From the NCBI RefSeq assembly GCF_044324785.1, contig NZ_CP172127.1: DNA of 64,000 bases; one strand, 5' to 3'. Both the position numbers and the translations under genes were made by a program. The stretch is from Escherichia coli. Lineage in GTDB: Bacteria; Pseudomonadota; Gammaproteobacteria; Enterobacterales; Enterobacteriaceae. Shown in pieces: positions 14,435-25,000 of the stretch; position 1 is the stretch's first letter, and every line of letters starts with the position of its first letter. The notes under the pieces are model-generated. The model saw nothing but the letters and a program-made list of their open reading frames with translations, made no database searches and was not told where the DNA came from.

Positions 14435-14589
14435 TGGAGGAATTATGAAACACTGTCGGGAATCGTCTGAATGACGGGCACATTTGCGAGCACGCATCCA
14501 GTAATAACACATGAAACTATTTTATCTACGCGTTAGCGATAGACTGCTTGCATGGCGAAAGGAGGTAAGCCGACGATTTCAGCGGGACG

Positions 14590-14740
14590 CTGAAACGGGA
14601 AAGCCCCTCCCGAGGAAGGGGCCATAAATAAGGAAAGGGTCATGATGAAGCTACTCATCATCGTGGTGCTCTTAGTGATTAGCTACCCAGCATACTAAGA
14701 CTACCAGGGCGGGGGAAACCCCGCTCTACCCTCACTCCTG
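14590..14740 (-). ncRNA. sib: Sib antisense sRNA (antitoxin of ibs copy 1); boundaries approximate
   Basis: Minus-strand promoter-like TTGACA (14770..14765) and a CATACT -10 downstream of the ibs stop. Transcript would be fully antisense to ibs. Ends not determined. Confidence 0.45.
14642..14698 (+). CDS. ibs: Ibs-family small hydrophobic toxin (type I TA), copy 1: MMKLLIIVVLLVISYPAY
   Basis: 18-codon ORF after an AAGGAAAGGG SD. Sequence matches the Ibs toxin peptide family. Confidence 0.75.
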   Translation: MMKLLIIVVLLVISYPAY

Positions 14741-14917
14741 AAAGTATGCCTTCACGATAAGATTGTCAATCTGCAGGCTTTGCAGTCTGCGATCCTGCCA
14801 GCAAATATTCTTTGCGAGACGTTACGCAATAATCACATGTGAAACTATTTTATCCGCAAGTCAGCGATAGACTGCATTCAGGGCGAAAGGAGGTAAGCCG
14901 ATGATTTCAGCGGGACG

Positions 14918-15068
14918 CTGAAACGGGAAAGCCCCTCCCGAGGAAGGGGCCTTAAATAAGGAAAGGGTCATGATGAAGTGGATCATCATCGTGGTGCTCT
15001 TAGTCATAAGCTTCCCGGCTTACTAAGACTACCAGGGCGGGGGAACCCCCGCTCTACCCTCACTCCTG
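14918..15068 (-). ncRNA. sib: Sib antisense sRNA (copy 2); boundaries approximate
   Basis: Placed by repeat periodicity (~328 bp) relative to copy 1. Confidence 0.4.
14970..15026 (+). CDS. ibs: Ibs-family small hydrophobic toxin, copy 2: MMKWIIIVVLLVISFPAY
   Basis: Second repeat unit, same architecture. Confidence 0.75.
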   Translation: MMKWIIIVVLLVISFPAY

Positions 15069-15249
15069 AAAGTATGCCTTCACGATAAGATTGTCAATCT
15101 GCAGGCTTTGCAGTCTGCGATCCTGCCAGCAAATATTCTTTGCGAGTCGTTACGCAATAATCACAGAGGAAACTATTTTGTTCACGCGTTAGCGATAGAC
15201 TGCATTCAGGGCGAAAGGAGGTAAGCCGACGATTTCAGCGGGACGCTGA

Positions 15250-15400
15250 AACGGGAAACCCTCTCCCGGAGAAGAGGGCTTTTAATAAGGAAAGGGTTAT
15301 GATGAAGCACGTCATCATACTGGTGATACTCTTAGTGATTAGCTTCCAGGCTTACTAAGAACACCAGGGGGAGGGGGAAACCTCTCCCTAACCCTCACTC
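15250..15400 (-). ncRNA. sib: Sib antisense sRNA (copy 3); boundaries approximate
   Basis: Placed by repeat periodicity; a TTGACA-like box (TGTCAA on + strand) at 15427-15432. Confidence 0.4.
15299..15358 (+). CDS. ibs: Ibs-family small hydrophobic toxin, copy 3: MMKHVIILVILLVISFQAY
   Basis: Third repeat unit, same architecture. Confidence 0.75.
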   Translation: MMKHVIILVILLVISFQAY

Positions 15401-15578
15401 CTGAAATTATGTCACTCCGCCCTTAGTGTCAATCGACGGCTCTCCGTTCTTGCGAGGCGAATAGCAAAATTTTCTGCGCCGCCGGGCCTAATTCTGAAAG
15501 TTTCTTCGTTTGCTCTTATTTCATTGTTGCGGTCGGTATGATACCGGGCCTCAATAATTCTCTAAGAAAGGATTTCTT

Positions 15579-16238
15579 ATGAGCGAACAAATCACGTTTG
15601 CCACCAGCGATTTTGCCAGTAACCCGGAACCACGTTGCCCCTGCATTTTGCTGTTGGATGTTTCTGGTTCGATGAGTGGTAGACCTATTAATGAACTTAA
15701 CGCCGGATTGGTTACCTTTCGCGATGAACTGCTTGCCGACCCGCTGGCCTTAAAAAGAGTGGAACTCGGCATTGTGACGTTCGGCCCGGTGCATGTGGAA
15801 CAACCCTTTACCAGCGCCGCTAATTTTTTCCCGCCCATCCTGTTTGCCCAAGGCGATACACCAATAGGCGCTGCCATTACCAAAGCCCTGGATATGGTAG
15901 AGGAGCGCAAACGTGAGTATCGTGCAAATGGTATTTCGTATTATCGCCCGTGGATTTTCCTGATCACCGATGGCGCTCCAACCGATGAGTGGCAGGCTGC
16001 CGCCAACAAAGTGTTTCAGGGGGAAGAAGATAAGAAGTTTGCCTTCTTTTCCATCGGTGTTCAGGGGGCGGATATGAAGACTTTGGCACAAATCAGCGTT
16101 CGTCAGCCTTTTCCACTGCAGGGATTACAATTCCGTGAACTGTTTAGCTGGTTATCCAGTTCACTGCGTTCGGTTTCCCGCTCCACGCCGGGAACGGAAG
16201 TTGTGCTGGAAGCGCCAAAAGGCTGGACGTCAGTGTGA
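15579..16238 (+). CDS. yegL: von Willebrand factor A (vWA/TerY-like) domain protein YegL, 219 aa
   Basis: MIDAS-like motif [11 protein letters not shown]. Good SD (AAAGGA). Stop overlaps the yegK GTG start. Confidence 0.9.
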
Positions 16239-16996
16239 GCTGGCGTCTGGTCTATGCATCAACCGTTGGAACGTCGCACATCAGCGCGGACTTGCCTTGC
16301 CAGGATGCCTGCCAGATGCAGGTTGCCTGGTTAAATGACCAGCAGCCATTATTGTCGGTATTTGTCGCTGATGGCGCAGGCAGTGTCTCGCAGGGTGGCG
16401 AAGGCGCGATGCTCGCCGTCAATGAAGCGATGGCTTATATGTCGCAAAAAGTGCAGGGCGGGGAATTGGGGCTTAATGATGTCCTCGCCACGGATATTGT
16501 GCTGACCGTTCGTCAGCGACTTTTTGCCGAGGCGGAAGCCAAAGAATTAGCTGTTCGCGATTTTGCCTGCACGTTTCTGGGACTGATTTCATCGCCTAAC
16601 GGCACCCTGATTATGCAGATTGGCGATGGCGGCGTGGTGGTAGATTTGGGGCACGGTCTGCAACTGCCGCTCACGCCGATGGTGGGTGAATATGTCAACA
16701 TGACGCACTTCATTACCGATGAAGATGCGGTTTCCAGACTGGAAACTTTCACCAGCACTGAGCGTGCGCACAAAGTTGCAGCATTTACGGATGGTATCCA
16801 GCGGCTGGCGTTAAATATGCTGGATAATTCTCCCCATGTGCCTTTCTTTACCCCGTTTTTCAATGGGCTGGCGTCAGCAACGCAGGAACAACTCGATTTA
16901 TTACCTGAATTGTTAAAGCAGTTTTTGTCCAGCCCGGCGGTAAACGAGCGTACCGATGATGATAAAACGTTGGCACTGGCGCTGTGGACAGAATGA
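16235..16996 (+). CDS. yegK: PP2C-family Ser/Thr protein phosphatase YegK, 253 aa
   Basis: GTG start overlapping the yegL stop (GTGTGA). PP2C-like motifs (VADGAGS, DGGVVVD). Confidence 0.9.
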
Positions 16997-17060
16997 ACAT
17001 CGCATGGCGGTTGAAGACAACAGTTCAACCGCCAGTTTAAGCAATCAATATAATGGCTGG

Positions 17061-17522
17061 TTAGCGAACTAATTTTGCTCTTAGCTCGTCGGCTTCTTCT
17101 TTTGGATAGGTGACCAATAAAGGATCAATGGTATAACCGCCGTAAATTTTATCCCCGCGTGTATACATCCAGTCTGAAATATCTTCTTTCTTGATTTTCC
17201 ACTCCTGACCATATTCTACGTTTGTAACAATACCAGGGTCATTGCTTATTACGCCAATAAACATGCCGTTAGAATAAGTGACATCCGTGAGCCAGAAATG
17301 CTCGGTTCTTCCGTGATCGGTTATCGGGGCTTTGACTGCGAAAGTATCGGCATCTTTTTTATTCATAACCTCGATGAATTTATCAGTTTCTTTCCGCGCA
17401 TGTTGAATGGCGTCAGACATCGCTTGTTTATCATAACCTCCCGTCACTAACGTATCCGAAACTTCACTAAAGCCCGCGGTAGTAAAAAATAGCAGACTCA
17501 ACATAAGTAATATCTTTTTCAT
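17061..17522 (-). CDS. yegJ: periplasmic DUF2314-like protein YegJ, 153 aa
   Basis: Signal-peptide-like N-terminus MKKILLMLSLLFFTTAGFS. Convergent with yegK. Confidence 0.85.
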   Translation of the reverse strand: MKKILLMLSLLFFTTAGFSEVSDTLVTGGYDKQAMSDAIQHARKETDKFIEVMNKKDADTFAVKAPITDHGRTEHFWLTDVTYSNGMFIGVISNDPGIVTNVEYGQEWKIKKEDISDWMYTRGDKIYGGYTIDPLLVTYPKEEADELRAKLVR

Positions 17523-17722
17523 TTTTTCTCCAGAATCCCTGTGTAGTAAAAGTTAGCAATAAACCTGTGGAAGTGAATCATTATCAGGTTGGAATTGAAT
17601 TGTATCCTGATGAAATTGCATTATCATTTTTATTCTTGAGTGGGACTCTTCCCATATAGAAATAATTATAATAGGCAGTGTTATTATTCATTGAAATATA
17701 ATATGACTGCCCTTGAAACATT

Positions 17723-19669
17723 ATGAAGACAAATATAAAAGTATTTACATCGACAGGTGAATTGACCACTCTCGGGCGTGAACTGGGCAAAGGTGGCGAA
17801 GGCGCGGTTTATGATATCGAGGAGTTAGTCGATAGCGTCGCCAAGATTTATCACACGCCGCCACCCGCCTTAAAACAGGACAAACTTGCCTTTATGGCTG
17901 CGACAGCTGATGCGCAGTTGCTGAATTATGTCGCCTGGCCGCAGGCAACGCTTCACGGTGGACGAGGCGGAAAAGTAATCGGTTTTATGATGCCAAAAGT
18001 TTCTGGTAAAGAACCGATTCATATGATCTATAGCCCGGCACATCGTCGTCAACGTTACCCTCATTGTGCGTGGGATTTTCTACTCTATGTTGCGCGCAAT
18101 ATTGCTTCATCTTTTGCTACGGTTCACGAGCACGGGCATGTCGTGGGTGACGTAAACCAGAACAGCTTTATGGTAGGCCGTGACAGCAAAGTGGTGTTGA
18201 TTGATAGCGACTCCTTTCAGATTAACGCCAATGGCACACTGCATTTATGCGAAGTCGGCGTGTCGCATTTTACGCCGCCAGAGCTGCAAACCTTGCCATC
18301 ATTTGTCGGCTTTGAACGCACCGCGAATCACGATAATTTTGGCCTTGCGTTGCTGATTTTTCACGTCTTGTTTGGTGGTCGGCATCCTTATTCCGGTGTA
18401 CCGCTTATCTCTGATGCGGGTAATGCACTGGAGACGGATATTGCCCATTTCCGTTATGCCTACGCATCAGATAATCAGCGACGTGGTTTAAAACCGCCGC
18501 CACGATCTATTCCGCTGTCGATGTTACCAGGTGATGTTGAAGCCATGTTTCAGCAGGCATTCACGGAAAGTGGCGTGGCAACCGGGCGTCCGACGGCAAA
18601 AGCGTGGGTAGCGGCACTTGATTCTCTACGCCAACAGTTAAAGAAATGTACCGTTTCGGCAATGCATGTTTACCCCGGTCATTTGACTGACTGCCCGTGG
18701 TGTGCGCTGGATAATCAAGGCGTTATCTATTTTATTGATCTCGGCGAAGAGGTCATTACCACCAGCGGTGATTTTGTGCTGGCGAAAGTCTGGGCGATGG
18801 TGATGGCGTCAGTTGCACCACCAGCATTGCAACTGCCATTACCCGATCATTTCCAACCGACTGGCAGGCCGCTTCCTTTAGGCCTGTTACGGCGTGAATA
18901 CATCATTCTGATTGAGATCGGACTGTCAGCGTTATCGCTGTTGCTTTGCGGCCTTCAGGCAGAACCGCGTTATATTATTTTGGTTCCTGTGCTGGCGGCT
19001 ATCTGGATTATTGGCAGCCTGACAAGCAAAGCGTACAAAGCAGAAATCCAGCAACGCCGTGAGGCGTTTAATCGCGCGAAAATGGACTATGACCATTTAG
19101 TCAGCCAGATCCAACGGTTGGGCGGGCTGGAAGGTTTTATCGCCAAACGGACGATGCTCGAAAAAATGAAGGACGAAATTCTTGGGTTACCGGAAGAAGA
19201 GAAACGCGCTCTGGCAGCACTTCAGGACACCGCAAGGGAACGGCAGAAGCAGAAGTTTCTGGAGGGATTTTTTATTGATGTTGCCTCTATTCCCGGCGTT
19301 GGCCCTGCGCGTAAAGCGGCGTTACGGTCCTTTGGTATTGAAACGGCGGCAGACGTTACCCGACGGAGCGTTAAGCAAGTTAGAGGTTTTGGTGATCATC
19401 TGACCCAGGCGGTTATCGACTGGAAAGCAAGTTGCGAACGCCGTTTTGTGTTCAGGCCGAATGAAGCGGTAACGCCAGCAGACAGACAAGCGGTAATGGC
19501 AAAAATGGCCGCCAAACGACATCGGCTGGAATCGACGTTGACTGTCGGCGCGACAGAGTTGCAGCGATTCCGCCTTCATGCTCCAGCACGGACCATGCCG
19601 TTGATGGAACCTTTACGTCAGGCGGCAGAAAAACTGGCTCAGGCGCAGGCTGATTTAAGCCGTTGCTGA
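17723..19669 (+). CDS. yegI: Hanks-type (eukaryotic-like) Ser/Thr protein kinase YegI, 648 aa
   Basis: Glycine loop GKGGEGAVY, VAK lysine, catalytic-loop variant HVVGDVNQNS, DSDS variant of DFG. Predicted TM segment, then a C-terminal helical domain. Confidence 0.9.
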   Translation: MKTNIKVFTSTGELTTLGRELGKGGEGAVYDIEELVDSVAKIYHTPPPALKQDKLAFMAATADAQLLNYVAWPQATLHGGRGGKVIGFMMPKVSGKEPIHMIYSPAHRRQRYPHCAWDFLLYVARNIASSFATVHEHGHVVGDVNQNSFMVGRDSKVVLIDSDSFQINANGTLHLCEVGVSHFTPPELQTLPSFVGFERTANHDNFGLALLIFHVLFGGRHPYSGVPLISDAGNALETDIAHFRYAYASDNQRRGLKPPPRSIPLSMLPGDVEAMFQQAFTESGVATGRPTAKAWVAALDSLRQQLKKCTVSAMHVYPGHLTDCPWCALDNQGVIYFIDLGEEVITTSGDFVLAKVWAMVMASVAPPALQLPLPDHFQPTGRPLPLGLLRREYIILIEIGLSALSLLLCGLQAEPRYIILVPVLAAIWIIGSLTSKAYKAEIQQRREAFNRAKMDYDHLVSQIQRLGGLEGFIAKRTMLEKMKDEILGLPEEEKRALAALQDTARERQKQKFLEGFFIDVASIPGVGPARKAALRSFGIETAADVTRRSVKQVRGFGDHLTQAVIDWKASCERRFVFRPNEAVTPADRQAVMAKMAAKRHRLESTLTVGATELQRFRLHAPARTMPLMEPLRQAAEKLAQAQADLSRC

Positions 19670-19681
19670 GCAAGTTTTCAA

Positions 19682-21034
19682 TTAACGAAACACCACTTCC
19701 GCCCAGCGTGCCAGCCCGGCGGTGACGGAGCCAAAGTCATCGCCACCTGCAATCGGAATGCCCGGCAACTGTTCTGTCAGCGCTTTTTTAATCAGCGGTG
19801 AACGGGCGCTACCGCCGGTCAGATAGATAACATCCGGTTTTTCCTGGGCGTTATCCAGCGCCAGTTGCACCTGTTCCAGAATCCGCGCCAGCGGCTGGCT
19901 GAGGGCGCTTTCCAGCCCTTGTCGGCTAATCAGCGTTGCCAATTCATCGCTGATAAACGGCAGTGAGGCGCGGGTTTCCGCTACGCTTGAAAGCGCAATT
20001 TTGCTCTCTTCTGCGCTGCGCACCAGGCGATAGCTTAAACGCTGACGCCAGACTTTCTGTAACAGGGCCACTTTCTCCGGTTCGCGGGCATCGCGTACCA
20101 GATCGTTAAGCAGACGACCGTTGGCACTACTGTAGAAATCACTTTGCGCAGGGACGTCGTTGATGGCAACCGCATTCCACCACGGCAGGATCGGCAGGGC
20201 GATGCCTTTTTCGGTTTCGCCACCCATGCCAAGTAACGGCATCAGGTTTTTAAACGCCAGCGCGATATCCAGATCGTTACCACCAATACGGCAACCACTG
20301 TGACCCAGCAGGCTGGCTTCACGATCGAGACGCGAACGCCACTGCGGCCCCATCAGCAGCAATGAACAGTCAGTCGTACCACCGCCGATATCCACCACCA
20401 GCACCCGTTTTTCTTCCTGCAAGGTGGCTTCGTAATCCAGCCCAGCCGCGACCGGCTCGTACTGGAATACCACGTCCCTGAATCCGGCACGCTTCGCCGC
20501 GCGTTCCAGAATCCCTTGCGCCTGGGCGTTTGCTTCATCGCCGCCCAGCCCCTGGAAGTTGATCGGGCGACCAATCACCGCCTGAGTAATCGCTTCTGGC
20601 AGCTGCGCCTGCGCCTGCTGGCGAATGTGCAACATCATTGCGCAGACCAGATCCTCAAACAGCGCTACCTGCTGCGGTTTTAAGCCGCTGGCACCGAGGA
20701 ACGATTTTGGTGATTTCACAAACCACACTTCTTCTGGATCATCAATGTACTGTGCCAGTGAGGAAAGACCGAACTGCACGCTTTTCGCCGTAACATCGAT
20801 ATCTTCTTCGCGGTTATAACGAATCGCCCGACGCAACAGCGCCTGCGTTTCATCGTCGTCTGCCGGAACATCATGATGGCGGTACAGCCATTCGCTTACC
20901 GCTTCACGCGTTGGCGCGCAAAGCATTGAAGGCAGCAGCGTGCTGTCGTTTTCCATTTTTAGCAAGTGCGGTTTACCGTCACGCATGACCGCCACTGAAC
21001 AGTTTGCTGTACCGTAATCAAAACCAATAAACAC
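19682..21034 (-). CDS. yegD: Hsp70/actin-fold chaperone-like protein YegD (450 aa from GTG 21034; in-frame ATG alternative at 21097)
   Basis: N-terminal FIGFDYGTANCSVAV and DIGGGTTD motifs characteristic of the Hsp70/DnaK ATPase fold. Confidence 0.85.
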   Translation of the reverse strand: MFIGFDYGTANCSVAVMRDGKPHLLKMENDSTLLPSMLCAPTREAVSEWLYRHHDVPADDDETQALLRRAIRYNREEDIDVTAKSVQFGLSSLAQYIDDPEEVWFVKSPKSFLGASGLKPQQVALFEDLVCAMMLHIRQQAQAQLPEAITQAVIGRPINFQGLGGDEANAQAQGILERAAKRAGFRDVVFQYEPVAAGLDYEATLQEEKRVLVVDIGGGTTDCSLLLMGPQWRSRLDREASLLGHSGCRIGGNDLDIALAFKNLMPLLGMGGETEKGIALPILPWWNAVAINDVPAQSDFYSSANGRLLNDLVRDAREPEKVALLQKVWRQRLSYRLVRSAEESKIALSSVAETRASLPFISDELATLISRQGLESALSQPLARILEQVQLALDNAQEKPDVIYLTGGSARSPLIKKALTEQLPGIPIAGGDDFGSVTAGLARWAEVVFR

Positions 21035-21167
21035 GAAATAATCCCCATGCCGGTGAAGAAGGGGCGTGACTTTAGCGAAATGTTGCCGTCGCGACAACCG
21101 GAATATGAAAGCAAAGCGTAGCGTCTGAATAACGTTTATGCTGAAAGCGGATTAACAAGGAGATGCG

Positions 21168-22025
21168 ATGTATACCCTGAACTGGCAGCCGCCATATGAC
21201 TGGTCGTGGATGTTGGGATTTCTCGCCGCCCGTGCGGTGAGCGGTGTTGAAACGGTTGCGGACGATTATTATGCCCGTAGTCTGGAGGTGGGCGAATATC
21301 GCGGCGTGGTGACTGCTATTCCGGATATAGCCAGCCATACTCTGCACATAAATTTAAGTGCAGGTTTAGAACCTGTTGCCGCTGAGTGTCTGGCGAAAAT
21401 GAGCCGCCAGTTTGATCTGCAATGTCACCCGCAGATTGTTAACGGTGCGTTGGGCAAGTTAGGCGCGGCGCGGCCCGGATTGCGTTTACCCGGCAGTGTT
21501 GATGCTTTTGAGCAGGGCGTGCGGGCGATTTTAGGCCAACTGGTGAGCGTGGCGATGGCGGCAAAATTGACCGCCAGAGTGGCACAGCTTTATGGCGAAC
21601 GGCTGGATGATTTTCCGGACTATGTCTGCTTCCCCACGCCTCAGCGGCTGGCTGCAGCCGACCCGCAGGCATTAAAAGCGTTAGGTATGCCGTTGAAACG
21701 GGCAGAGGCACTGATTCATCTGGCAAATGCGGCGCTGGAGGGCACCTTACCAATGACAATTCCGGGCGACGTAGAACAAGCGATGAAAACGCTGCAAACT
21801 TTTCCGGGTATCGGGCGCTGGACGGCGAATTATTTCGCCTTACGTGGCTGGCAGGCGAAAGATGTTTTCCTGCCGGATGATTATCTGATTAAACAGCGAT
21901 TTCCGGGAATGACACCGGCACAAATCCGCCGTTATGCCGAACGCTGGAAGCCCTGGCGTTCTTATGCGCTGTTGCATATCTGGTATACGGAAGGCTGGCA
22001 ACCAGACGGAACGGACGAATTGTAG
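21168..22025 (+). CDS. alkA: 3-methyladenine DNA glycosylase II AlkA, 285 aa
   Basis: Translation MYTLNWQPPYDWSWMLGFLAARAVSGVETV... recognised as AlkA. Confidence 0.93.
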   Translation: MYTLNWQPPYDWSWMLGFLAARAVSGVETVADDYYARSLEVGEYRGVVTAIPDIASHTLHINLSAGLEPVAAECLAKMSRQFDLQCHPQIVNGALGKLGAARPGLRLPGSVDAFEQGVRAILGQLVSVAMAAKLTARVAQLYGERLDDFPDYVCFPTPQRLAAADPQALKALGMPLKRAEALIHLANAALEGTLPMTIPGDVEQAMKTLQTFPGIGRWTANYFALRGWQAKDVFLPDDYLIKQRFPGMTPAQIRRYAERWKPWRSYALLHIWYTEGWQPDGTDEL

Positions 22026-22062
22026 GCCTGATACGCCGCATCAGTCGATGGGGAAGCACGCC

Positions 22063-25000
22063 TTAGTTAATCGCGAAATAACTGCTATTCACCAGCAAAT
22101 CCAGCGGTTGGGCATCGGCAATCACATCGCCATAAATCAGATCGACGCCGATGCCAGAAAGCGTATCCATCACCAGGGGTAAAACGACTGGCCCGGCGAT
22201 GGTCTTCATCCCGAGCCGCTGAGCGTGCCCCTGAATGATCGTAATCAGCATCTCATCCATCAAATTTCCCTGCACGTTGGCGCATAACTCACCATCAAGT
22301 AGCAGATAATCTGCCATATTTGCTTTCAGCGAGTTGAAGATTTGCAGATCGCGGCCCACCTGACTGAATACGATCCGACATCCCGCCAGCCGCAGTTTTT
22401 GCACGCTTTCTGCGTGATCTAAAATCGCGTCTGCCGGAATAATCAGATGTAATAACCGTGGTGGTATAGGGCTATTTTCCAGCTGCTCAATTAGTTCATT
22501 CACCAGCGTGGCGCTACTCAAACCGGCAACGGAAAGGGGGAGGGCGATGCTTAAGCCTTTACTGGCAATCGCTTTTGCGGCCTGCTGGAAAAAATCGTGG
22601 AATACCCGTCGGTCAAGAGCATGGCTAAGTGCCGGATCGCTGAAGCTACGACGAAATGTTTGTTCATCAATAATCTCGCCTTCGCAACTCCAGAGCTTAA
22701 GTGAAATCAGCCACAAATTACGTGCTTCCGGGATCCGCGGCGAAGCGACACCGTGGGCGATCATCATCAACTGATTTTCTTTAATCATCCGCCACTGTTC
22801 ATCAAGCGATATCGCCGCCCGTTCGCTATGTGCGGCAGCTTGCTGTGGTTCGTAAACCGTCACGCGGCCCCGTCCACCATTTTTGGAGGCATAACAGGCG
22901 ATATCAGCCTGCGACATCACTTCTGCCGCCTGATGATTGTTGTCATCAATCAAGGTAATCCCGGCACTGGCACCTACCCGATGTACACGTCCTTCCCATA
23001 TAAAGTGATAGTCATTCACGGCACTGATAATGCGTGTAGCGATAAAACGCGCGCTTTCAACATTACAGTCTGGTAGCAGCAGACCAAATTCATCCCCACC
23101 GAGTCGCGCCAGCACGTCGCTGGAGCGCAGCATACTCAGCATCAACGACGCCAGTTCGCGCAGCAAAGCGTCGCCAGCGGCGTGCCCGGCGCTGTCATTC
23201 ACCGCTTTAAAGCGATCAAGATCGATAAACACCAGTGCATGTCGCTGATGTGTACTGTTTACCGTTTGCAGCAGGATGCGTAGTTGTTTCTCAAAACTGG
23301 CGCGGTTGGCGAGATGCGTCAGTGCATCATGGGAGGCGCTGTAGCTCAGCTGGCGCAGCATTTTACGCGATTCGGTGACGTCCTGAATCACCAGAACCGA
23401 ACCAATATTGCTGCCGTCCAGAGTACTTAACGGCGTAATACTGTAATGCACGTCGTAGCTGCCGCCGCTTCGGCAGTGCAACACCACATCTTGTTCAATC
23501 GCGGAACGTGAGGTGTCGGCACTGTAAATGTTCTCCATTAATGGTCCGTTGTCGCCAAAAGTAATATGCAACACCGTCAGGAGTGGAACACCTAACGCTT
23601 CTTCCTGCGTCCAGCCGCTCATCTTCTCCGCCACCGGATTCATAAAGGTAATTTTCATTGCCATATCAATACAGACCACGGCTTCGCCGATGGAATCCAG
23701 CGTTATGTGCAGGCGCTCTTTTTCCTGAAACAATGCCTCGTTAAGCTGTTTCACTTCGGTCATATCCATATTAATGCCGAGCAGGCGTTCGACTTCGCCT
23801 TCTTTATTCAGTACCCGGTTGGCGAGGGCGCGGATATGGCGAATACCGTCTTTCACGGTAATGCGAAATTCCAGTTTAAAGGGAGAGCGTGATTGCAATG
23901 AATCGCGAATCACTTTTTCGGCGTGCTGGCGATCTTCCGGCAGCACGCAGTCGTACCACACCTGCCAGTTCGGTTTGATATGCGGAGGAATTTCATACAG
24001 CTCGAACATCCGCTTATCCCAGCTAAAAATATTCGGCTTAAGCTCCCACTCCCAGATGCCAATCCCGCCCGCTTCGTTAGCCAGCGTGATGCGCTCCATC
24101 AGTTGCTGGTTCACCTGTTCGGTGCGTTTTAGCTCGTTAATGTCTTCAATCTGAGCGATAAAATAGAGCGGCGTGCCATCCGTGTGGCGCACCAGTGAGA
24201 CGGCAAGCAACGCCCAGACAACATCGCCATTGCGGTTGTAGTAGCGTTTTTCCATTGAATAGGTGTTTATTTCACCGCTTATCAGCTTTTCAACCTGTTG
24301 GAGATCTTTATTGAGATCCTCCGGCCAGGTCAGTTGCTGAAAGGTGAGTCCGCGCAGCTCTTCCTGACTGTAACCGAGAAACTGGCAGAGCGCTTTGTTG
24401 GATTGCAGCCATTGCCCCTCGGTGCCCACTAATGCCATGCCGATGGCGGAATATTCCATGGCATTACGAAAACGGGTTTCGCTTTCAGAGATGTGTTTGC
24501 GTTCCGCACGAAAGGCATACATCACCATCGTCATGATGTTGGCGGGCAGCAGGATCAGCAAAAACGGTAGCCACGGCATATGGCTCATCAGGTATGTACG
24601 CGGCGTAGCAAGCAGGGAGGGATCAGCGGCCATCATCAGTGACACCATCATCACCGTGGTAAGGAAGATCAAAAAGGCTTCCATTCGTGGCAGGCGCACG
24701 GCGCTCCACATCAACAGCACAATAATGAAAGTAAAAGGCCACGGCAGATACAGCATCGAAAGCCAGCTTAACGTCAGTGTGATGGCCAACGTGAGCAGCG
24801 ACTCAAAAAGCAACCGTGGGTTGCGATGGCGCAGCAGATAGTGTGGTTTAAATAACAATCCCAGCGGCACCAGTGCCAGTGCGCCGATGGATTCTGAAAG
24901 TACCCATATCAAAAATGCCCTGAGAGGATCGTCTCCGGGCGTCAGCAGGACAACCAGAACACCCCCCAACAGAGGCGGAACAATGGCGCTGCCGAGTGCC

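Follow-up and report, generated by a model that had tools for sequence, protein, structure and literature searches.

The yegD gene, in a stretch of Escherichia coli DNA of 64,000 nucleotides (the window, contig NZ_CP172127.1 of assembly GCF_044324785.1), encodes an Hsp70-like ATPase and lies directly beside genes for a protein kinase, a PP2C phosphatase and a vWA protein. The locus raises the question of whether this ATPase is part of the neighbouring signalling genes or an unrelated protein that happens to adjoin them. Our answer, which we consider very probable as a whole, is that yegD is a vertically inherited gene for a protein consisting of a nucleotide-binding domain (NBD) only, that its translation starts at GTG 21034, and that its neighbours form an unrelated, inserted cassette of the TerY-P type with which it has only local coupling.

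The gene is ordinary and already known in E. coli:

19682..21034, minus strand: yegD CDS, GTG start, TAA stop, 1353 nt, 450 aa, Hsp70-type nucleotide-binding domain only (from the ORF and its translation)

The stop codon occupies 19682-19684 and the GTG lies at 21034; the ORF is far above chance expectation. RefSeq/PGAP places an identical 1353-nt yegD, named 'molecular chaperone', between yegI and alkA. Against the equivalog model NCBIfam NF008673 the protein scores 809.6 bits (cutoff 331), with residues 1-450 on profile positions 1-450, and against Pfam HSP70 it is matched with E = 1.4e-25. The catalogued YegD family (NF008673 / PRK11678; UniProt 'uncharacterized chaperone protein YegD', E. 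coli K-12) agrees with the gene here in length, in its GTG start and in lying between alkA and yegI; catalogued E. coli sequences share 98-99% identity with the window copy, with no notable difference. The literature searched held no paper on the biochemical characterisation of YegD; one query gave only generic Hsp70 papers.

Identity to the window copy declines smoothly with taxonomy, from E. albertii (95%), Citrobacter (90%), Salmonella (89%) and Enterobacter (85%) to Pantoea (74%), Yersinia (72%), Vibrio (49-56%) and Shewanella (47-48%). Comparisons with E. albertii, Citrobacter and Salmonella give dN/dS ratios of 0.04-0.06, about 0.05 overall. yegD thus appears to have been inherited vertically, as a stand-alone gene belonging to the core of Enterobacterales and of neighbouring orders of Gammaproteobacteria.

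The initial annotation regarded the start as ambiguous between GTG 21034 and an in-frame ATG at 21097. The codon at 21097 is TTG, and the sole nearby ATG (21048) is out of frame. Comparison of homologues settles the start for GTG 21034: the aligned position is ATG or GTG in about 40 genera (Enterobacterales, Vibrio, Aeromonas, Shewanella), in-frame stops are found 1-17 codons upstream in many genera, and in Citrobacter the upstream frame is disrupted by an indel of 1 nt immediately ahead of the GTG. With translation, as judged from these alignments, beginning at this GTG after a conserved Shine-Dalgarno GGGGA, the yegD start can be taken as fixed. The sequence ahead of it is read as a leader with a putative promoter:

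21035..21097, minus strand: leader and putative promoter of yegD
21097-21092, minus strand: -35-like TTGTCG, candidate promoter element in the leader
21074-21069, minus strand: -10-like TAAAGT, candidate promoter element in the leader
21064-21061, minus strand: CCCC tract, facing the Shine-Dalgarno GGGGA
21046-21042, minus strand: Shine-Dalgarno GGGGA, 7 nt ahead of the GTG

The TTG at 21097, which opens the long ORF, is not a start codon and is probably part of the -35-like hexamer. TAAAGT and GGCATGGGG are invariant or almost so across 16 Enterobacterales leaders. The sole structure that RNAalifold predicts from the leader alignment is a CCCC/GGGG stem of 4 bp, in which a single pair is compensatory, and the single-sequence fold is no better than shuffles (z = 0.8). 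Predicted duplexes of the leader with a RyhB sequence are no better than those of shuffled leaders, and we claim no site.

At its other end yegD is convergent with yegI, as first described:

19670..19681, unstranded: spacer of 12 nt between the convergent stops (yegI TGA 19667-19669, yegD TAA 19684-19682)

A spacer of 12 nt is too short for separate terminators, and the 3' ends of yegD and yegI must therefore overlap. There is no terminator-like site in the spacer, and the number of such sites in the region is no higher than in shuffles. The pair belongs to the 165 excludons listed as convergent in E. coli MG1655, where a listing means detection in at least 50% of the analysed transcriptomes (PMC12288877). 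Mild overexpression of yegJ, a further gene of the adjoining segment, strongly raises yegD mRNA (PMC13232886). The link that survives is a lineage-restricted regulatory coupling in Escherichia, as documented in the literature (PMC12288877, PMC13232886). Local convergent transcription with overlapping 3' ends, possibly together with the effect of yegJ on yegD mRNA, would be the only coupling that the insertion brought about.

One may give this coupling more weight and propose that yegD and yegI form, through the short spacer, an excludon with mutual damping, a relationship that is regulatory and not biochemical, and that yegD read-through antisense to yegI may reach the co-directional yegJ in strains that harbor yegJ. 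We hold this as a tentative possibility. It is consistent with the terminator-free spacer, the entry in the MG1655 convergent excludome (PMC12288877), the published expression link between yegJ and yegD, the location of both genes on the same strand, and a yegD-yegJ tandem in Superficieibacter electus, the only case outside Escherichia of yegJ beside yegD among the loci examined. However, it forms a compatible layer on the insertion account and does not replace it; the triad genes are published as barely expressed in laboratory conditions, 65% of E. coli genomes lack yegJ (1924 of 5426 have it), and elsewhere no Hsp70 gene adjoins the YegJ homologues. A yegD-yegJ partnership was likewise considered and rejected, as YegJ homologues occur on three distant contigs without Hsp70, kinase, PP2C or vWA neighbours.

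The genes on the far side of the spacer belong to an Escherichia-specific segment:

15460..19681, unstranded: Escherichia-specific segment directly behind yegD, containing yegL, pphC/yegK, yegJ and yegI
15579-16238, plus strand: yegL, Pfam VWA
16235-16996, plus strand: pphC/yegK, Pfam PP2C_2
17061-17522, minus strand: yegJ, within the segment behind yegD
17723-19669, plus strand: yegI, annotated protein kinase

The description of these neighbours as kinase, phosphatase and vWA genes is correct. YegL and PphC/YegK are assigned by Pfam; the annotation of YegI as a protein kinase is backed by weak PADLOC and NCBIfam matches to the kinase region together with published biochemistry. No PADLOC family is matched by YegK or YegL at E <= 0.01. 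The piece carrying yegJ has a low GC content (0.38-0.43). TerY-P triads combine vWA, PP2C and Ser/Thr kinase proteins (Anantharaman et al. 2012; TerY-P-like defence, Gao et al. 2020; as summarised in PMC11090510), and yegL, pphC and yegI are adjacent genes for these three domains in the same order. In other bacteria the triad is a compact operon, often in defence islands, whereas in part of E. coli it is split by yegJ. A zinc ribbon or OB fold is described for the TerY-P kinase; the YegI C-terminus shows instead only a weak, sub-threshold match to HHH_5 (helix-hairpin-helix, residues 517-553).

YegI homologues are 90-98% identical within Escherichia, whereupon identity drops to 62% (Klebsiella spallanzanii), 61% (Piscinibacter) and 59% (Chromobacterium). 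All five YegI-type triads outside Escherichia are compact trios of vWA (219 aa), PP2C (212-253 aa) and kinase (~648 aa) genes with differing flanks, and four of the five adjoin GmrSD, type I RM, BrxR, JetB, AbiH, KAP NTPase or Tn7-like genes. The yegL-pphC-(yegJ)-yegI block is thus probably a separate, horizontally acquired cassette of TerY-P type, which an Escherichia ancestor would have received at a site with the stop codon of yegD on one side and the sib/ibs repeats on the other. In Salmonella the TAA of yegD runs straight into GCGCCTCGCAAG, with which the sib/ibs repeat unit begins, and the same motif is found at ~15459 in the window. The gene order in Salmonella and Citrobacter is asmA-dcd-udk-dgcE-alkA-yegD-ibs-mdtABC, with the triad absent. 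Because the cassette would be separate and horizontally acquired, its adjacency to yegD is best seen as an accident of insertion. Work on YegI and PphC should take as its natural unit the cassette of three genes that other bacteria carry in defence islands, and not yegD.

A functional link between yegD and yegI-L had been called plausible, with a lack of co-conservation across genomes named beforehand as the outcome that would speak against it. This outcome was obtained. Within 10 kb on either side of yegD, in one genome per species, homologues of YegI, YegK or YegL occur in none of the 75 loci outside E. coli (tblastn and single-sequence phmmer, which very divergent kinases would escape). Conversely, none of the five non-Escherichia triads has an Hsp70 gene beside it. 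Clustering of 832 flanking ORFs reveals no conserved yegD neighbour of any kind beyond order-level synteny. In E. albertii and E. coli 19-5 the triad has been deleted, leaving scars beside a yegD that is still intact. yegD adjoins the kinase, phosphatase and vWA genes only through insertion of a mobile three-gene cassette in the Escherichia lineage. Inference of YegD function from these neighbours by guilt by association is thereby removed, and the informative comparisons for YegD are the many genomes that harbor yegD alone.

Within the species the arrangement is stable: the triad is present in 5393 and yegD in 5417 of 5426 complete E. coli genomes, with adjacency kept in about 99%. Near-fixation leaves room, therefore, for functional recruitment specific to this lineage. 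In the most far-reaching version, Escherichia wired the cassette and the later-inserted yegJ to a resident NBD-only Hsp70 through antisense (excludon) transcription and YegJ-dependent induction of yegD, such that YegD serves a kinase/phosphatase/vWA switch in stress or anti-phage response, either as its ATP-dependent cofactor or as its phospho-target, an independent re-invention of the pairing of Hsp70-like and TerY-P proteins in type III-A CoCoNuT systems. We regard this as improbable.

Quite improbable, too, is that YegD works within a signalling or defence module that yegL, pphC and yegI make up in Escherichia, for instance as a kinase substrate, or as a sensor or effector that depends on ATP and was recruited once the cassette had arrived. 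Besides the adjacency in about 99% of complete genomes and the increase of yegD mRNA upon yegJ overexpression (PMC13232886), such membership has a precedent in type III-A CoCoNuT systems, where Hsp70-like CnuD proteins and TerY-P triads co-occur (PMC11090510). Common descent alone, however, predicts near-fixation within one species. Neither the 75 other yegD loci nor the five other triads show the association, yegD is intact where the triad was deleted, purifying selection on yegD is equally strong in triad-free lineages (dN/dS 0.06 against Salmonella), and yegD and the triad genes are convergent and not co-transcribed. [quoted passage not shown] The CoCoNuT companions McrB-like GTPase, DUF2357 (McrC-N), helicase and HEPN (PMC11090510) are absent among the annotated neighbours of yegD, which, apart from the segment itself, are mdtAB, ibs, alkA, dgcE, udk, dcd and asmA. 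We therefore retain the reading of an inserted, unrelated cassette.

The protein itself was initially described as a stand-alone paralogue with the Hsp70/actin fold, intact nucleotide-binding motifs and no canonical lid. Pfam, NF008673, the motif alignment and fold matches bear out the first part; the second holds as well, and alignment and model indicate that the whole substrate-binding half is absent too. Across 33 diverse family members the residues G4, D6, G8, T9, K110, E193, P194, A196, A197, D215, G217, G218, G219, T220, D222, G251, G252, D256, G407 and G408 are invariant, and the motifs align with GIDLGT, EPTAAA, DLGGGTFD and GGxxRxP of DnaK. YegD thus has the features of the Hsp70/actin-fold superfamily, namely phosphate-1 (DxG[ST]), connect-1 (EPxAA), phosphate-2 (DxGGGTxD), adenosine (GG) and a two-lobe fold, and judging by the alignment it carries every residue required for ATP binding and hydrolysis. 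The AlphaFold2 model (pLDDT 94.4) maps over its full length onto Hsp70 NBD structures. In a fold search the best 50 matches are all Hsp70 proteins aligned through their NBD (E about 1e-19 to 1e-21), with TM about 0.7 for the top matches, normalised to NBD targets of ~380 residues. DnaK, HscA and HscC share with YegD the four-subdomain actin-fold NBD as well as the phosphate-1, catalytic Lys/Glu, phosphate-2 and adenosine motifs; identity to them is only 17-23%, and YegD has enlarged subdomains (450 aa as compared to ~380).

The last NBD helix (H436-449) is also the end of YegD, and no residues follow. Where DnaK, HscA and HscC continue with an interdomain linker, a substrate-binding beta-domain and a helical lid, neither E. 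coli YegD nor any of the 33 aligned members has a linker, SBD-beta or lid; the chain terminates exactly where the linker of DnaK would begin. Of the features of a canonical Hsp70, YegD lacks both the hydrophobic linker with substrate-binding beta-sandwich and the C-terminal alpha-helical lid, and DnaK-family NCBIfam models score at most 88 bits against cutoffs of 620-1019. Without linker and SBD, YegD therefore would not clamp peptides in the manner of DnaK, HscA and HscC. Most likely it is an ATP-driven two-lobe switch that acts on some partner. For a protein that has only the NBD, the name 'molecular chaperone' misleads. That YegD nevertheless folds clients as a conventional Hsp70 with DnaJ- and GrpE-type partners is hardly credible: the name given by NCBIfam and PGAP, its proximity in sequence and fold to DnaK NBDs and its inclusion among Hsp70s in chaperone surveys (PMC3930520) point that way, but the chain stops at the last NBD helix, the aligned members have no linker, SBD-beta or lid either, and none of 76 yegD loci has a J-protein or GrpE-like gene as conserved neighbour.

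An actin-like filament former of the MreB/ParM type was rejected, because the Pfam MreB_Mbl (36 bits) and PHROG partition-protein matches span residues ~133-229 only, the shared phosphate-2 region, and the listed fold matches are all Hsp70. PADLOC yields for YegD only a 27-residue match to phosphate-2, and PHROGs give generic Hsp70 and ParM-region matches. Longer members of the YegD family likewise contain no SBD or signalling domains according to Pfam: nine of ten consist of the NBD alone, and the tenth carries a fusion to NeuB, which may be an artefact of assembly or gene calling.

The gene yegD (window 19682-21034, minus strand) encodes a protein of 450 aa. A 2-kb query around it finds matches in 5417 of the 5426 complete E. 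coli genomes, most of them with 95-99% identity, which identifies the window as Escherichia DNA. The minus-strand reading frame opens with a TTG (21097) and closes with a TAA (19684-19682). At the equivalent position, RefSeq/PGAP lists a yegD of 1353 nt, annotated as 'molecular chaperone' and located between yegI and alkA, whose start is the GTG corresponding to window 21034. YegD matches NCBIfam NF008673 at positions 1-450 of 450 (809.6 bits, cutoff 331) as well as Pfam HSP70 (E = 1.4e-25). The gene belongs fully to NF008673 and is the yegD already catalogued, nothing new in kind. Its neighbours on the side of yegI are:

15579-16238, plus strand, yegL (vWA)
16235-16996, plus strand, pphC/yegK (PP2C)
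17061-17522, minus strand, yegJ (DUF2314)
17723-19669, plus strand, yegI (kinase)

Annotation and domain assignments agree with the kinase, phosphatase and vWA neighbours named in the initial annotation, and yegD is indeed convergent with yegI, with 12 nt separating the stop codons.

The description of YegD as an Hsp70-like ATPase with intact motifs is borne out by both family matches, by alignment and by fold. Across 33 members of the YegD family (31-89% identity to the window protein), the residues G4, D6, G8 and T9, K110, E193, P194, A196 and A197, D215, G217, G218, G219, T220 and D222, G251, G252 and D256, as well as G407 and G408 are invariant. In a HMMER alignment to Thermus DnaK, these invariant residues fall on GIDLGT, EPTAAA, DLGGGTFD and the adenosine motif GG-x-x-R-x-P, so that the ATPase machinery is intact. 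An AlphaFold2 model built on the same alignment (mean pLDDT 94.4, pTM 0.91) retrieves only Hsp70 proteins among the top 50 Foldseek matches in the PDB, all aligned on their nucleotide-binding domains (NBDs; E ~1e-19 to 1e-21), with a TM of ~0.7 when normalised to these ~380-residue targets. The last NBD helix (H436-449) ends the chain, and neither linker nor beta-sandwich nor lid is found in the model or by fold comparison. YegD hence shares a superfamily with the canonical Hsp70 chaperones but lacks their defining linker, substrate-binding domain (SBD) and lid; the family models of DnaK and HscA score at most 88 bits against cutoffs of 620-1019. Longer members of the YegD family consist of the NBD plus insertions only, with no SBD, kinase, PP2C or vWA domain. 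The earlier remark that there is no obvious canonical substrate-binding lid is correct as to the lid and understated otherwise: the entire substrate-binding half is missing, so the label 'molecular chaperone' is not supported by the architecture. YegD probably acts instead as an ATP-driven two-lobe switch on a partner, rather than as a peptide-clamping chaperone. Any likeness to MreB or ParM is limited to the common phosphate-2 region, and an MreB- or ParM-like identity was rejected. No biochemical study of YegD was found in the literature searched; an overexpression screen for H2O2 resistance lists yegD (PMC8228696).

The start of yegD had been considered ambiguous between GTG 21034 and an in-frame ATG at 21097. 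The codon at 21097 is TTG, and the sole nearby ATG (21048) is out of frame. We placed the start by homology in ~45 yegD loci. The aligned codon is GTG in Escherichia, Salmonella, Citrobacter, Enterobacter, Kluyvera and Superficieibacter, and ATG in Mangrovibacter, Pantoea, Yersinia, Rahnella, Brenneria, Pectobacterium, Rosenbergiella, Providencia, Vibrio, Aeromonas and Shewanella; in all aligned loci the protein begins with M-(F/Y/V/S)-(I/V)-G-F-D-Y/F-G-T. Many genera have an in-frame stop 1-17 codons upstream (Superficieibacter -17, Mangrovibacter -4, Vibrio sp. -1) with no other start in between, and in Citrobacter a 1-nt insertion right before the GTG throws the upstream TTG out of frame. 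Together with a nearly invariant Shine-Dalgarno sequence, GGGGA, 7 nt upstream of the GTG, these comparisons place the start at GTG 21034.

The TTG at 21097 falls on a conserved -35-like TTG(T/C)C, followed 17 nt on by a -10-like TAAAGT box that is invariant in 16 Enterobacterales, and is therefore most simply read as promoter sequence. Conservation of the promoter and leader (21035-21097, minus strand) is far above that of synonymous sites: ~44 nt are identical in E. coli, Salmonella and Citrobacter despite a dS of ~1.2. In the same 16 Enterobacterales a CCCC tract in the leader faces the Shine-Dalgarno GGGG, and Pectobacterium shows one compensatory U-A. Translation of yegD is activated by RyhB (PMC4666370), and this element could be the putative Shine-Dalgarno-sequestering basis of that activation; neither single-sequence folding of the leader nor a RyhB duplex test with it was significant. 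The alkA and yegD promoters are divergent and have a common 133-nt intergenic region. On the alkA side (21098-21167, plus strand), GAATATGAAAGCAAxGCG and CGTTTATGCTG are kept in E. coli, Salmonella and Citrobacter; these motifs resemble the alkA Ada-binding box and -10.

A functional link between yegD and yegIJKL had been thought plausible. Co-conservation, tested from yegD as well as from the triad of yegL, pphC and yegI, was not found, which is the outcome that the initial annotation had named as refuting the link. A family-alignment scan with one genome per species gave 76 yegD loci in Enterobacterales, Vibrionales, Aeromonadales, Alteromonadales, Oceanospirillales and a small number of remoter lineages. 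Within 10 kb of yegD, tblastn (E <= 1e-5) and phmmer on all six-frame ORFs (E <= 0.01) detected no YegI, YegK or YegL homologue in these loci, except for a yegL fragment in E. albertii. Clustering of 832 flanking ORFs likewise yielded no family-wide conserved neighbour, only order-level synteny. Salmonella enterica and Citrobacter freundii keep the order asmA-dcd-udk-dgcE-alkA-yegD-ibs-mdtABC, with no gene between yegD and ibs. The E. albertii fragment is a deletion scar of the triad beside an intact yegD: the yegD stop is followed by ~60 nt of the yegI 3' end, fused to sequence upstream of and within yegL, and then by the sib/ibs repeat (locus L006, 11354-11540). E. coli 19-5 (locus L088, 5206-5313) shows a comparable scar, with 36 codons of yegI left directly behind an intact 450-aa yegD; the two deletions are independent. 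With dN/dS values of 0.043 against E. albertii, 0.057 against Citrobacter and 0.064 against Salmonella (dS up to 1.25), yegD is under strong purifying selection whether the triad is present or absent. The gene is vertically inherited and strongly constrained.

The triad has a different history. YegI homologues share 90-98% identity within Escherichia, 62% in Klebsiella spallanzanii and K. aerogenes, 61% in Piscinibacter and 59% in Chromobacterium, a patchy spread compared to the smooth decay of YegD with taxonomy. All five non-Escherichia contexts considered (L082, L083, L084, L089 and L090, representing Klebsiella spallanzanii, Piscinibacter, Chromobacterium and two metagenomic contigs) contain a compact trio of vWA (219 aa), PP2C (212-253 aa) and kinase (~648 aa), each with different flanks and none with yegJ or an Hsp70 gene. 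Four of the five adjoin genes for GmrSD, type I restriction-modification, SymE, BrxR, JetB, AbiH, KAP NTPase or Tn7-like TniQ/TniB. Identity pattern, compactness, flanks and neighbours all point to a self-contained mobile cassette, and the defence, restriction and Tn7-like genes suggest that in E. coli, too, the trio may be a defence-island cassette; YegK and YegL had no match among the PADLOC models. By domain content the triad, not yegD, would be of the TerY-P type. TerY-P triads have been described as signalling switches tied to restriction and defence systems, and TerY-P-like modules work as anti-phage systems (PMC11090510). The combination of Hsp70-like protein and TerY-P known from type III-A CoCoNuT is absent here, since no CoCoNuT core gene lies near yegD. 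The triad occurs in 5393 of the 5426 complete E. coli genomes, for which common descent is sufficient. YegI has no Pfam kinase-domain match; its C-terminal part (residues 517-553) gives a helix-hairpin-helix match, below threshold, and in many sources its homologues go by the name 'DNA-binding helix-hairpin-helix protein with protein kinase domain'.

In Salmonella, the yegD TAA is directly followed by GCGCCTCGCAAG, with which the sib/ibs repeat unit begins. The same motif lies at ~15459 in the window, which delimits an Escherichia-specific segment of ~15460-19681. As the adjacency of yegD and yegI is absent from yegD loci elsewhere and triads elsewhere lack an Hsp70 gene, it most probably reflects an insertion in an Escherichia ancestor and no conserved partnership. 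In Superficieibacter electus ~5 kb of unrelated ORFs separate a yegJ homologue from mdtA, suggesting a variable hotspot at the yegD/mdtA junction. In the window, the interval between mdtA and yegL holds three sib/ibs type I toxin-antitoxin repeat units in tandem (14560-15460), and the inserted yegL-yegI segment adjoins the first.

Some coupling may nevertheless follow from the insertion. With the cassette inserted only 12 nt beyond the yegD stop codon, the transcription units of yegD and yegI would have to overlap at their 3' ends; no terminator-like site was found in the 12-nt spacer, and the list of 165 convergent excludons in E. coli MG1655 includes the pair (PMC12288877). The gene yegJ is co-directional with yegD: read along the minus strand, yegD comes first, then antisense yegI, then yegJ. 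A 2026 study reported that yegD mRNA rises strongly when yegJ is mildly overexpressed, and its authors speculated on a common pathway (PMC13232886). The yegJ segment (17030-17700), whose GC content is low (0.38-0.43), represents an indel polymorphism within the pphC-yegI operon. Of 5426 complete E. coli genomes, only 1924 carry yegJ, in line with an earlier report that B strains lack it (bioRxiv 10.1101/303594). Members of the YegJ family are few and scattered: besides E. coli, they occur in Superficieibacter (75%) and, at 55-62%, in metagenomic and Opitutaceae sequences. Outside E. coli, only one of the 76 loci, that of Superficieibacter electus (L013, 10001-12010), has a yegJ homologue (74%) adjoining yegD, 198 nt on its 3' side and co-directional, with no triad at this locus; three more distant homologues have unrelated neighbours. 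Given this distribution, a local regulatory link between yegD and yegJ in some E. coli strains is plausible, rather than a conserved system. That the inserted cassette and yegJ secondarily recruited YegD in Escherichia only, we consider very improbable.

We note that alkA and dgcE are likewise convergent, with a 37-nt gap (window 22025-22063), and that the called genes overlap in Salmonella and Citrobacter. This pair is also listed as an excludon (PMC12288877).
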